This document shows positions 60,114-63,422 of a stretch of 64,000 bases of DNA, piece by piece (position 1 is the stretch's first letter; each line of letters opens with the position of its first letter). The position numbers and the translations under genes are program-made. The stretch comes from Escherichia coli (lineage in GTDB: Bacteria; Pseudomonadota; Gammaproteobacteria; Enterobacterales; Enterobacteriaceae): NCBI RefSeq assembly GCF_041886205.1, contig NZ_CP169029.1. One strand, written 5' to 3'. The notes beneath the pieces are model-generated. The model saw only the letters and a program-made list of their open reading frames with translations. It was not told the DNA's origin and did not search any database.

Positions 60114-61255
60114 TTACGAAAGCCCGCTCCCCGCAAGGACTGACGCCAGATAGTTTCTGTCCATGGCTGCTTTTCGCATCTTACGTCTTAACCCTGCCTT
60201 GAATACCTTATCATTCGTCAAAATATTAATAGCAATGTGCCGTATCCCTGAAAATAATTCTGCTGCATTTCCTCTTCTTATTTTGCAGTCGTCTTCATTC
60301 ATTACCACGTCCAGACGCCAGTGCAGCTTATTCTCCACGTGCCAGTGATTTCGGATTGCTGTGGCGAACTTTTCAGCGGTTAAATCAGCAGAACTGATAT
60401 AATATCTGACCGTCATTTCTGGCTCTTTCTTTTGTTCTGCTATTATGGACCGAAAGGAGACTGCCACGCATAATTTCTTCAGCCCTTTCCATTCAAACGT
60501 GAAATCAATAAGTTCATCAGGGACATCGCAAACAATATGAAGACGGATTTCTTCTCTGCCGTGACTCTTTTCACTAATTGCGTAACTGTCATGCTCTGGA
60601 TTATTTAATTCTTTCAGCGGAAATCTCTCCTCAAAGGCTTTATTTAGCCGCCCCTGGTTTCCTTTTACCGCGAATAAATAATCACCTCCCTGTTTTTGTA
60701 TCTTCTCTGCAATATCTTTCTGGCAACCCATCGCATCAGTTGTGATGATTTTTCCTTTAATATCCAGCATGTTTAAGAAGTTCTGGGATAGCTGTAATCT
60801 CATTAGATTTCTCATCCGTCCTGATCTGTCCGATGACCAGACTGTGCATTGTTGAGAACGCACTAATGACATGAATCGCTCCCCTGCGGCGACTCTTGTC
60901 ATAAATGTGCCGGAAGTGTTTTCCCATCAATTGCGATGACGTCTTTATCATCTGAAGAATGGCAGCTCACGCATCCAGTTAATAAAGCACTCAGTGAAAT
61001 TTTCCAGGACTGATACAGGATACAACTCTGGCAATAGTATCGTGAACAGGAATACCATTTTCAAAATCACCATATTGCTTCAAGAAATCGAGACGTGTTT
61101 CCCCGAAATCCTCCATATCTTCCCAACTTTCTGCACCAGAAATAACGGCACAACACAGTCAACAGTAGGATGTCCGGACGATTTATGCTCCACTTTCCAG
61201 GCTCGTACTCTAATGGGGACAGACAGCAAATATGTTCCATCAATTGTTCAAGTTC
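60114..61255 (-). pseudogene. ISAs1-family (H-repeat-associated) transposase gene, near full length but disrupted by several frameshifts
   Basis: Fragments in three frames (MEHI...DILLLT; [34 protein letters not shown]; [45 protein letters not shown]; [22 protein letters not shown]...[10 protein letters not shown]...) that are collinear with what I recall of an ISAs1 transposase; upper boundary approximate. Confidence 0.8.
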
Positions 61256-61538
61256 CAGTTGGTTCTACCTTAATTATGTAAGGAGTATGTTGATCATGTA
61301 TAAGCTATAAAACAGCTTCAGGTAATGAGGAAGTATCTCAATTCTGAATACCTAGAATGCGAAGTATTTAGTACAAAAAAGTGAGCGTCTGACGTGATGC
61401 CTGTGTCCTAGGCGCAGCCCTTCTTTCTTTTCCTCTTCACCCTTGATGTCTTGGCAATCCCTTGGTAAATTCAGTGCCATCTTCTTTATTCCAAGTGTTA
61501 TTTAGGCTGCGTTTCCTCTTCTTATCCGGCTGGCATCT

Positions 61539-62429
61539 TCATTGATTTTCTACATATCTAACACCCAATGAAGACTGTGCTGATTCAACCAGTGCGCTCT
61601 GAGAGCACGTGCAAGTTCTCCACGCATCCATATCCTTTGATGAAATATAATATCTGATGCCCACACCTTCTGCTGATTTATCTTCTTTCTTCTGCCTGAA
61701 TGACAATGCTACACAAGAGCTTTTCAATCTCTTCCATTCTAATTCAAAGTCACAAAAGTTCAGGTCATGATACTGACAATATGCAAACGTGCACCACTTC
61801 TTCCATGCCTTGTCTCCTGGGAATTACGGGCTGCCTTTGTAATCAGAAAACACGTTCACAGGCAATTTTTCCTCGAACGCACGAGGCGATTTCCCTGATT
61901 CGCCTTATTTACTGCCAGAGATGATCTGCTATTTAATCATGTCTATAGCTATCGAAGCGACAGCTTCTAGACAGCCCATAGCAGTCAGTGGTCATCGAAT
62001 TGTTGAACTTAAAATACGAGTTAGGTTAGTAGCAACTCTGGAAGTGGCTGTAATCATCATTACTTTCGGCCTCCGAATGCCACCTGCCCCAGTACAACAC
62101 CTATTTCCGTTCGAGATATGCACTTTCACCATATGCGATTGCTCCTTTTCGTTTTCCCTCAGGAAGTAGTCTTTAACTGCTCTTCCATCTATTGCTGTAA
62201 TTTCACCATCAGTGATTTCATGGCACTCCTGTATCCATTCAATAAACATCTTTTCAAAGGCCAAGACTGTCAATGTTGCTCGCGACGCGTGCAATGCTGT
62301 CATTCGACCGTAATGCCATTGATCAAAATCACCATATTTCTTTAGCCATTCAAGTCTTTCATGTCCAAGATCTGCATTTTCTTTACCCGCATTGGCACCT
62401 GCCAACAACTGCACATACGGTGAGAACAA
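61539..62429 (-). pseudogene. second, more divergent and internally decayed H-repeat (ISAs1-like) transposase remnant
   Basis: 145-aa fragment (...LEWLKKYGDFDQW...ITAIDGRAVKDYF...) resembles the ISAs1 N-terminal region; 62-aa fragment (...VGIRYYISSKDMDAWR...) resembles its C-terminal region. Confidence 0.6.
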
Positions 62430-63422
62430 ATAGCAGATACTTTATGTTGATAGACCGTACCTTGTCGTCGTATATCAGGGACTTACTGAAAACCGATCAA
62501 AGCAAACTTTGAGTAACACTCGCCTGCGTCCATTTTTTCTAGCTGTATTCATCAACTCCTGCAACGATATCACCTGTATGGCGTTGAAGCCCAAGATGAA
62601 GGCGTCGTGATCCACGATCGCGAATTTCAAGTATTTCGCCCCGTCCCTTGCGCTCGTGACTTTCTGTATGTATTTCATGTTTTACCCAGTTCTGGTGTTG
62701 TCCAATAATGACCATCCACCGATCCAGTCAAAAACTTCATTTTTCAAATTGATACCATAACAATCAACATCGTAATGGTCTCCATAATTAATTATTTAAC
62801 AACTAGCCAACACGTTTTGATCATCAAAATAGCACCCGTTAGCGAAAGTAGCGCAGAACAATCCATAATCTCCAGTTTGCTAATGTTTCGCAATCGCACG
62901 CTATAAAGAATATCACCGAAAAAACTAACGATTTATATCAACCACTCCAGCAGAGCGACCTGAAACTCTTAACCATTATACTTATAAAATGACCATTCCC
63001 TCGACTAGTTCTCTGGTCATTAATTATTGCATAAATAATATTCACCCAGAAACATCTATCTCAACTGCTCGTTGCTGGCCCATGTCCGGTAAATATGATG
63101 TCTGGGAATTTGAATAGGGTATCAAGCCCAAAGGTAAAACAAATAAACCAGGTGGTAATTGAGAAGATGGCCAAGTTTGCCTCTGGTAATTCAAGTGTCT
63201 GAACTCCCTTGCTTTGCTTTCATTGGATTATCTGCATCCCTGGCCACCCCAACCCGTGGAGTCGCCCAGTGGCGTATTTTTCAATACGTGCATCGCTACA
63301 TTTGGCAGAAAAATCGCCACAAGCAATACCTGACAGTGTTATTTTCAGATTGATGATTCTGTCTGTAGCTGGGCGTAACCCTGTCTATCCCTGCAGCTGA
63401 TGATTTTGACCTATCATGTTAG

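Follow-up and report, generated by a model that had tools for sequence, protein, structure and literature searches.

An ISEc1 element almost certainly nested within ISEc26 beside yafV of Escherichia coli, overlaid by a probably artefactual burst of changes

What lies between yafV and the Rhs element that ends this 64,000-nucleotide stretch of Escherichia coli DNA (the window), and how did it come to be so damaged? The original prediction placed here two decayed transposase genes of the ISAs1 (H-repeat) family, in tandem downstream of the Rhs tail. An ISAs1 element was recognized by a single DDE transposase with PF13808 (DDE_Tnp_1_assoc) and PF01609 (DDE_Tnp_1), by NF033564 and by a length of about 1.2–1.3 kb. 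Pfam, NF033564 and tblastn with K-12 YhhI do locate two ISAs1-family transposase remnants on the minus strand, between the Rhs tail and yafV (table 1), whose exact protein recurs in 15783 blocks of a public collection. Our account of them is a nested relic overlaid by an artefactual burst of changes, and as a whole we give it a probability of about 0.72.

Table 1. Features at the yafV end of the Rhs element, in window coordinates.
Feature	Position	Strand	Basis
yafV (2-oxoglutaramate amidase), intact, flanking landmark	59121–59891	+	ORF list; 100% identical in E. coli 6EVA and wlxctx60
ISEc26 3' fragment, last 110 bp	59994–60103	-	Collinear with right end of intact ISEc26, strain 8_140198
Right copy of 10-bp target-site duplication, GCGTTAAACA (minus-strand reading), intact	60094–60103	-	
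ISEc1 (H-repeat), full length, dead	60104–61405	-	Aligned to K-12 H-rptB (yhhI), K-12 ydcC, O26 and O121
ISEc1 transposase pseudogene	60114–61255	-	Pfam/NCBIfam matches, tblastn, alignment
Left copy of target-site duplication, GCGCCTAGGA, degraded, 5/10 positions kept	61406–61415	-	Aligned to O26
ISEc26 5' part (K-12 yncI type), dead	61406–62638	-	Aligned to intact ISEc26 (8_140198), O26 and K-12 yncI
yncO remnant	62607–62791	+	Coordinates transferred from K-12 (5320–5505 of K-12 locus)
ydcD remnant (YdcD family, presumed immunity gene)	62705–63198	-	Aligned to K-12 ydcD
Rhs C-terminal tip remnant (RhsE/YdcD type), frameshifted	63183–63690	-	
Rhs core end, continues past window edge	63684–64000	-	NF041261 and TIGR03696 matches, two frames
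Block of anomalous private changes	60370–63690	none	

The proximal copy is ISEc1, the classical H-repeat of the ydcC/yhhI type. At 1302 bp, against 1290–1291 bp in the reference copies, it is full length, as had been predicted. Its fragments match PF01609 and PF13808, and the longest ORF left in the transposase (60114–60902, 262 aa) scores 220 bits with NF033564, for which the cutoff is 70. At least four to five single-base frame corrections had been thought necessary to read through the gene. Aligned with YhhI, it carries 7–8 single-base insertions (at 60774, 60915, 60966, 60993/4, 61154, 61177, 61207 and 61227), no deletions and 43 substitutions, and its ATG start codon has become CTG. No natural ISEc1 variant was found behind the 5' half of this copy; the best match among 26027 places is 90.4%.

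Is the distal copy a more divergent, internally deleted version of the same element? It is instead of the ISEc26 type (K-12 yncI), an insertion sequence other than ISEc1. The intact ISEc26 transposase of an O157-type strain (390 aa) is 59% identical in amino-acid sequence to YhhI. Against an intact reference element of 1305 bp (strain 8_140198, WP_000027427.1) there are many small indels in the window and no large internal deletion: we count 22 indel events that shift the frame, 6 that keep it and 171 substitutions (14.7%) in the 5' part, and at 62523 the GTG start codon reads GCG. The best NF033564 score, from a 145-aa ORF, is 45 bits, below the cutoff, while the intact orthologue reaches 415 bits and contains the two Pfam domains. 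A +C frameshift, a TAA at codon 330 and a 5-bp deletion are common to the window, O26 and K-12. The yncI transposase is of the ISEc26 family; the gene is intact and full length in O157 Sakai, whereas MG1655 carries it as a pseudogene (PMC11540155).

Alignment to intact elements, proposed with the original prediction as a way to count indels and find terminal repeats, succeeded for the indels and for one end of each element. Both elements start CAGGG. The reference repeats are CAGGGAAAGATCA / CAGGGCAAGATTA for ISEc1 and CAGGGCAAGATCATGAA / CAGGGCAAGAGCATGAA for ISEc26; terminal inverted repeats in the ISAs1 family are some 14–22 bp long (ISfinder). The right repeats are intact, that of ISEc1 at 60104 and that of ISEc26, CAGGGCAAGAGCATGAATTAA, starting at 59994. 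Both left repeats are degraded and fall inside the anomalous block; that of ISEc1 (about 61381–61405) retains the reference base at 15 of its 25 positions.

Do the two elements stand in tandem? The last 110 bp of ISEc26 lie on the yafV side of ISEc1, outside the interval first noted (60114–62500). When 59994–60103 was checked against intact ISEc26, the same sequence was present at the right end of that element; it is also 100% identical to O26. The point of entry of ISEc1 falls at position 1196–1205 of the 1305 bp of ISEc26, with 110 bp left up to the right end of that element. In O26 the 10-bp GCGTTAAACA stands at either end of ISEc1, and intact ISEc26 has a single copy of it; target-site duplications of the ISAs1 family measure about 8–10 bp (ISfinder). 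We conclude, from alignment and these junctions, that ISEc1 is almost certainly nested within ISEc26 and that a tandem arrangement does not describe the locus.

The order of events is almost certainly as follows. An ISEc26-type element occupied the downstream end of an RhsE-type tail comprising the Rhs core, a YdcD-type toxin tip, ydcD and yncO. ISEc1 then transposed into it, duplicating the 10-bp target, and the resulting composite abuts yafV. Since the O157-type locus represents the pre-insertion state, this order is a clean one, and the presence of the target duplication shows that ISEc1 transposed once. Transposition of an H-repeat has never been observed (PMC3032704). Within the window the composite is inert: neither transposase gene can be read, and degradation has reached at least two of the four inverted repeats.

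The Rhs element had also been foreseen beside yafV, and it is there, with its core, a YdcD-type tip and remnants of ydcD and yncO. An Rhs core ends in the hyperconserved PxxxxDPxGL region (TIGR03696 / NF041261), which was found here. The core is read in two overlapping frames (RHS_core positions 1143–1200 and 1198–1251; TIGR03696, 71 bits), the frame being broken by one additional C near 63828. It is of the RhsC-orphan (K-12 ybfO-like) type, 99.1% identical to the ybfO-like core of SCU-118 and 97.2% to K-12 rhsB, but only about 80% to the RhsE-type core usual at this locus (O26). Among 5426 genomes, not one joins such a core to a YdcD-type tip. In an Rhs tail a variable C-terminal toxin tip precedes its cognate small immunity-type gene. 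The tip homologue, broken by 5 inserted bases, and ydcD, with 13 inserted and 2 deleted bases and no remaining ORF, follow one another in the right order; both are intact in O121 and G3/10, and intact K-12 YdcD matches NF050020. The long YD-repeat core and the N-terminal domain expected upstream would fall past the window edge. The Rhs site beside yafV was already known as b0215–b0221 (PMC3032704, Table 6).

How widespread is the composite? Comparison of the yafV locus across the species, another step suggested at the outset, finds the same composite in 2097 of 5426 complete E. coli genomes (about 39%), counted as those with at least 80% of 59900–62900 in one place. It is also present in the K-12 RhsE tail. 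Beside yafV it is already inactivated, both genes being pseudogenes in all genomes examined at that locus, and since it is annotated elsewhere as pseudogenes it is already known. The closest counterparts, at yafV in O26:H11 11368, O121 RM8352 and G3/10, have the nested composite, both halves of ISEc26 and both copies of the target duplication at the same site, and do not differ from the window between yafV and about 60350. Their annotation lists two genes as ‘ISAs1 family transposase’, both pseudogenes in RefSeq, followed by ydcD and an RHS core. Unlike the window, they have an ISEc1 without frameshift, with one stop only (codon 18), and an RhsE-type core.

The K-12 RhsE tail (NC_000913.3 1527890–1532952; rhsE'-ydcD-yncO-yncI'-ydcC) has its parts in the same order as the window, the same three lesions in the 5' part of ISEc26 and the same entry point of ISEc1, after GCGTTAAACA. 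It differs in its chromosomal site (yncH–pptA), in its intact ISEc1 (ydcC) and in having no ISEc26 3' fragment beyond ISEc1. It is 96.8–100% identical to other natural alleles and 83–87% to the window. O157:H7-type strains such as 8_140198 carry ISEc26 at the window's yafV site, preceded by ydcD, yncO and an Rhs fragment; there ISEc26 is uninterrupted and intact, without ISEc1, and it served as outgroup. Next to yafV in K-12 itself, the yafF pseudogene preserves 280 bp from the 3' end of the same ISEc1 and shares 97% identity with window 60115–60394; the rest of ISEc1, together with ISEc26, ydcD and Rhs, has been deleted.

If the composite is shared so widely, why is the window copy so much more damaged? 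With O157 as outgroup, the anomalous block contains 338 private substitutions, against 0 in O26 and 2 in the K-12 RhsE tail (Tajima relative-rate test, chi-square 338, p ~1e-75), together with 54 insertion and 11 deletion events. O26 and K-12 differ from O157 by 10 substitutions and 3 indels, and the window shares every one of them. With each older lesion of its sister alleles present, the copy is young rather than an old allele. All 2516 genomes that carry the ISEc26 part show 82–83% identity to the window and hardly differ among themselves; no intermediate ISEc26 allele was met among them.

The original prediction implied ordinary neutral decay in place of two H-repeat genes, which would make the window copy a relic of unusual age. 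That both genes are pseudogenes at this locus in all genomes examined would suit such decay, as would substitutions unconstrained by codon position (in neither ydcD nor the toxin tip are third positions favoured) and an excess of transitions over transversions (202 versus 151). Yet the orthologous ISEc1 in the 2097 other genomes has no frameshift, and 338 private substitutions against 0–2 in the sisters would require one branch to have changed over 100 times faster, while the flanking 22 kb (37458–59919) are 100.0% identical to strain wlxctx60. Neutral decay is already strongly disfavoured by the relative-rate test, and we consider it very unlikely.

The character of the changes is also at odds with natural decay. 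AT-to-GC changes number 220 and GC-to-AT changes 61 (0.153 versus 0.077 per site), raising GC content in the burst from 35.7% to 43.1%; the share of positions altered is 21% for A, 16% for T and 10% for G or C. Insertions exceed deletions 54:11, about 5:1 (p = 6e-8), and only 30% of the single-base insertions duplicate a neighbouring base, as slippage would. Codon position has no bearing on where the changes fall. Substitutions are clustered and enriched in A/T runs, and exact runs of 55, 54, 47, 46 and 46 nt nevertheless survive; on this clustering and these runs uniform in silico mutation was rejected. Bacterial mutation is AT-biased (PMC2936535) and bacterial deletions outnumber insertions (PMC2817411). 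The signature of the burst is the reverse of these known biases.

Might the block instead be an old diverged allele of another lineage or species, imported by homologous recombination with crossovers in ISEc1 and the Rhs core? These two sequences are multi-copy, bound the block and could have anchored recombination; the core at the window end is not of the type usual at the locus; and ISEc1 at 61150–61275 mixes variant bases of two natural ISEc1 types. But an imported allele should branch outside O26, K-12 and O157, whereas the window has all 13 derived characters of O26 and K-12, the ISEc1 insertion itself among them. Divergence, moreover, ramps up over some 800 bp (60370–61200) rather than stepping, before a plateau of about 15–25% that breaks off where the tip meets the core. 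No ORF is left unbroken, and base composition has shifted in the wrong direction for long-dead sequence. Nor did any donor-like sequence emerge from the 5426 E. coli genomes, species-representative hits, metagenomes or the protein collection. A conserved 26-mer found four contigs in the species-representative genome set, all with the ordinary allele, two window-specific k-mers had no metagenome match, and 20 ORF translations from the block, looked up as exact matches among 15 billion collected proteins, were all absent; for the 145-aa ORF the nearest protein relative shows 49–56% identity. We reject the old allele as such on the shared derived lesions and the relative-rate test, and import is in our estimate somewhat less likely still than in-place decay.

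Two related sources were also rejected. A first search, at 89.8% identity, had raised the possibility of a tract from another Escherichia species, but E. coli strains match the flanks at 100% identity. Gene conversion between insertion-sequence paralogues would make the window base that of the paralogue, which it is at 32–39% of informative sites, approximately chance. The window is gene-dense elsewhere, and the closest backbones, by exact YafV and FadE alleles, have IS256 after position 59919 instead of the relic.

Could the burst be real and recent, the product of error-prone copying over about 3 kb (Rhs tip, ydcD and both insertion sequences) in the living strain? Local hypermutation would account for a very large private burst on a young allele, confined to one tract, with A/T positions most affected. 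However, the changes are not adenine-specific as in diversity-generating retroelements, T being hit nearly as often as A, and indels are many; no template or variable repeat partner of the block exists elsewhere in the window; and no gene survives in the tract that could benefit. We know of no process in E. coli that produces such hypermutation. It is the least credible of these three natural origins, and we think it very improbable that the burst is a record of localized, A/T-targeting and insertion-prone mutagenesis, which would be undescribed in this species.

Instead we suggest that the heavy damage, with its 7–8 extra frameshifts in ISEc1 and 22 in ISEc26, is probably a sequence artefact: uncorrected, imputed or otherwise non-biological bases would overlie the common allele. 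This judgement is drawn from sequence comparison. Absence from the collections is, taken alone, a weak argument against a rare real allele, as the source genome is evidently absent from them too.

Several observations count against an artefact. By a unit-cost edit script the block shows about 11% substitutions, 3.7% insertions and 1.8% deletions. PacBio CLR errors are mostly insertions and nanopore errors mostly deletions; since the script is dominated by substitutions, no standard platform profile known to us fits, and raw long-read error was rejected as the source. Transitions exceed transversions, as in real evolution. The block also ends cleanly at the junction of toxin tip and core, with a good natural core beyond it, which a simple low-quality contig end would not predict.

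What does this locus mean for the organism? Taken at face value, the burst would suggest an ancient allele or hypermutation; the roughly 3.3 kb at the window end are unsuitable for statistics on pseudogenes, frameshifts or divergence before the sequence is verified. The biological weight of the composite itself is small, for it is a fixed, dead relic whose genes stand as pseudogenes in reference annotation. But what is annotated as ‘two tandem H-repeats’, here and in the RhsE tail of K-12, is in all likelihood one ISEc1 within one ISEc26.

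What lies beyond yafV at the end of the window? After the genes fadE, ivy and yafV, a stretch without a long open reading frame (ORF) continues to the window end. ORF fragments at 60114-61116 belong to the ISAs1 transposase family (Pfam, NCBIfam), and a tblastn search with K-12 YhhI returned two minus-strand matches, a close one at ~60117-61152 and a far weaker one at ~61466-62513. The window closes with 317 bases from the end of an Rhs core, which match NF041261 (positions 1143-1251) and TIGR03696 in two frames. The basic observation of the original prediction, two ISAs1-type transposase remnants and an Rhs tail beside yafV, therefore stands.

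Features at the end of the window
Feature	Coordinates	Remark
fadE		first of the three genes in plus-strand order
ivy		second in plus-strand order
yafV	59121-59891	plus strand; third
ISEc26 3' fragment	59994-60103	by alignment
ISEc1	60104-61405	by alignment
ISEc26 5' part	61406 to about 62638	by alignment
Rhs core end	63684-64000	RhsC-orphan (ybfO-like) type

Are these two tandem H-repeat copies, the distal one internally deleted, as had been proposed? In O157-type strains yafV is directly adjoined by an intact transposase of the ‘ISEc26 family’ (390 aa; element of 1305 bp), and ISEc1 is absent. The protein is 59% identical to YhhI, and both proteins score above 410 bits against NF033564. We aligned this intact element, O26:H11 11368 (O26), K-12 yncI and the window. 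The distal copy, ISEc26, stops at ...GCGTTAAACA, where the left inverted repeat of ISEc1 (CAGGGAAAGATC...) abuts directly; the remaining 110 bp of ISEc26 resume past the right inverted repeat of ISEc1, GCGTTAAACA again coming first. ISEc26 is thus split with GCGTTAAACA on both sides of ISEc1, and we conclude that ISEc1 entered ISEc26 by transposition, duplicating 10 bp of its target. The copies are two different elements, one inside the other, rather than a tandem pair, and since the missing 110 bp lie across ISEc1, outside the interval first reported, the distal copy is not internally deleted. Independently, PMC11540155 assigns yncI to the ISEc26-family transposases and describes a full-length gene for O157 Sakai and a pseudogene for MG1655. 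We are almost certain that the nested structure is both settled and ordinary.

The locus is already known. In O26, O121 RM8352 and G3/10 the annotated order at the orthologous site is RHS core, ydcD, ISAs1 pseudogene, ISEc1 pseudogene, yafV, and at least 80% of window 59900-62900 is found in one place in 2097 of 5426 complete E. coli genomes. The interval b0215-b0221 is an Rhs site in Table 6 of PMC3032704. The K-12 RhsE tail (rhsE', ydcD, yncO, yncI', ydcC) is made up of the same parts as the window locus. Four short contigs from a species-representative genome set, in metagenome-assembled bins labelled Planococcaceae, Sporosarcina, Flavobacterium and Bacillota, match that tail at 97-100% identity and are probably E. 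coli contamination.

How decayed, then, are the window copies? Against YhhI/YdcC, the window ISEc1 has 7-8 single-base insertions, no deletions, an ATG to CTG change and 43 substitutions; it is indeed frame-broken, where at least four to five single-base corrections had been predicted. The O26 orthologue has no indels and one stop codon. Against the intact element, ISEc26 carries 22 frameshifting and six in-frame indel events, a GTG to GCG change and 171 substitutions (14.7%). A further 13 inserted bases fall in the ydcD remnant and five in the Rhs-tip remnant. In a relative-rate comparison of window, O26 and K-12 (2272 aligned columns, the O157 element as outgroup), private substitutions numbered 338, 0 and 2, respectively (chi-square 338, p about 1e-75). 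The changes that define the O26/K-12 subgroup (10 substitutions, three indels) and the ISEc1 insertion are all present in the window. Natural alleles (O26, O121, G3/10, K-12 RhsE and the four metagenome-bin contigs) are mutually 96.8-100% identical. The window sequence is not an old allele: it descended recently from the common one and bears an enormous burst of private changes on top.

Where does the burst begin and end? Until about 60350 the window agrees with E. coli at 99.8-100% identity; past that point, differences from O26 per 200 bp are 3, 0, 3, 7, 13 and 37, then about 20-50 until 63690. Divergence thus rises gradually on the ISEc1 side; the other edge is the junction of toxin tip and Rhs core. 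The core is 99.1% identical to that of strain SCU-118 and 97.2% to K-12 rhsB, but only about 80% to the RhsE-type core usual before a YdcD-type tip at the yafV locus, and an extra C near 63828 splits its reading frame. No complete genome joins an RhsC-orphan-type core to a YdcD-type tip. Among complete genomes, identity reaches at most 83-85% for the ISEc26 part, 83% for the tail and 90.4% for the 5' 500 bp of ISEc1. A collection of 15 billion proteins, in which ORFs called from natural pseudogene copies do occur, has none of 20 exact translations of the block's ORFs, among them every one of the seven possible starts of a 262-aa ORF; the best relatives of a 145-aa ORF are 49-56% identical. Two window-specific k-mers gave no metagenome matches.

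In the 5' part of ISEc1 (61150-61275) the sequence switches nine or more times over about 130 bp between the typical bases of O26-type and of ydcC-type ISEc1, and matches to the alternative natural variant are far above the expectation from random change. Contiguous gene-conversion tracts would not give such fine-scale alternation.

Could the burst be natural decay in place? Bacterial mutation is AT-biased (PMC2936535), and in prokaryotes deletions outnumber insertions (PMC2817411). The burst runs opposite in both respects: 220 changes go from AT to GC and 61 from GC to AT (per-site rates 0.153 and 0.077), GC content rises from 35.7% to 43.1%, and there are 54 insertion against 11 deletion events (p = 6e-8). 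These reversed biases and the relative-rate result make decay in place and import of an old allele both very unlikely. Only 12 of 40 single-base insertions copy a neighbouring base, and inserted bases are G/C-rich. In ydcD and the tip, substitutions are evenly distributed among codon positions. Substitutions cluster (14 runs of at least four, 1.2 expected) and fall preferentially in A/T runs; even so, stretches of 55, 54, 47, 46 and 46 nt match exactly. Real local hypermutation is improbable: the block lacks a repeat partner within the window, and we know of no mechanism that fits. With these three disfavoured, the remaining explanation, to which we give a probability of roughly 75%, is that the burst is a defect of the sequence itself. 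Uncorrected gap filling, imputation and in-silico generation are among its possible sources. The edit profile (about 11% substitutions, 3.7% insertions, 1.8% deletions) fits no sequencing-platform profile known to us.

Over 37458-59919 the window and strain wlxctx60 are 100.0% identical, and in the closest backbones (wlxctx60, 6EVA and contigs L030 and L028; 99.8-100% identical) homology ends at 59918/59919 (within 59918-59920), past which they bear an IS256-family element together with remnants of T6SS or Rhs. B-type strains and K-12 share this break. The point, about 27 bp past the yafV stop codon, is a recurrent rearrangement breakpoint. At the other end, identity with the closest strains stops at a tRNA-Thr(CGU) gene (37459-37534, the thrW position), adjoined by a 326-aa ORF at 36225-37205; the island content of window 1-37458 differs from wlxctx60 and 6EVA. 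Between yafL and dpaA (yafK), K-12-like and B-like strains have the dinJ-yafQ toxin-antitoxin pair; the annotation of wlxctx60, a strain 100% identical to window ~52300-53500, has none there.

At the K-12 rhsE locus (L007:6640-8000) ISEc1 interrupts ISEc26 at the position seen in the yafV-side composite, and the 110-bp right end of ISEc26 is missing beyond ISEc1, with pptA-side DNA directly next; the tail copy therefore came from a rearrangement ending at the right end of ISEc1, not from an independent insertion. Beside yafV, the K-12 pseudogene yafF (L005:5099-5378) is the 3' 280 bp of ISEc1, 97% identical to window 60115-60394. We conclude that yafF is the scar left by deletion of the remaining composite and the Rhs/T6SS region.
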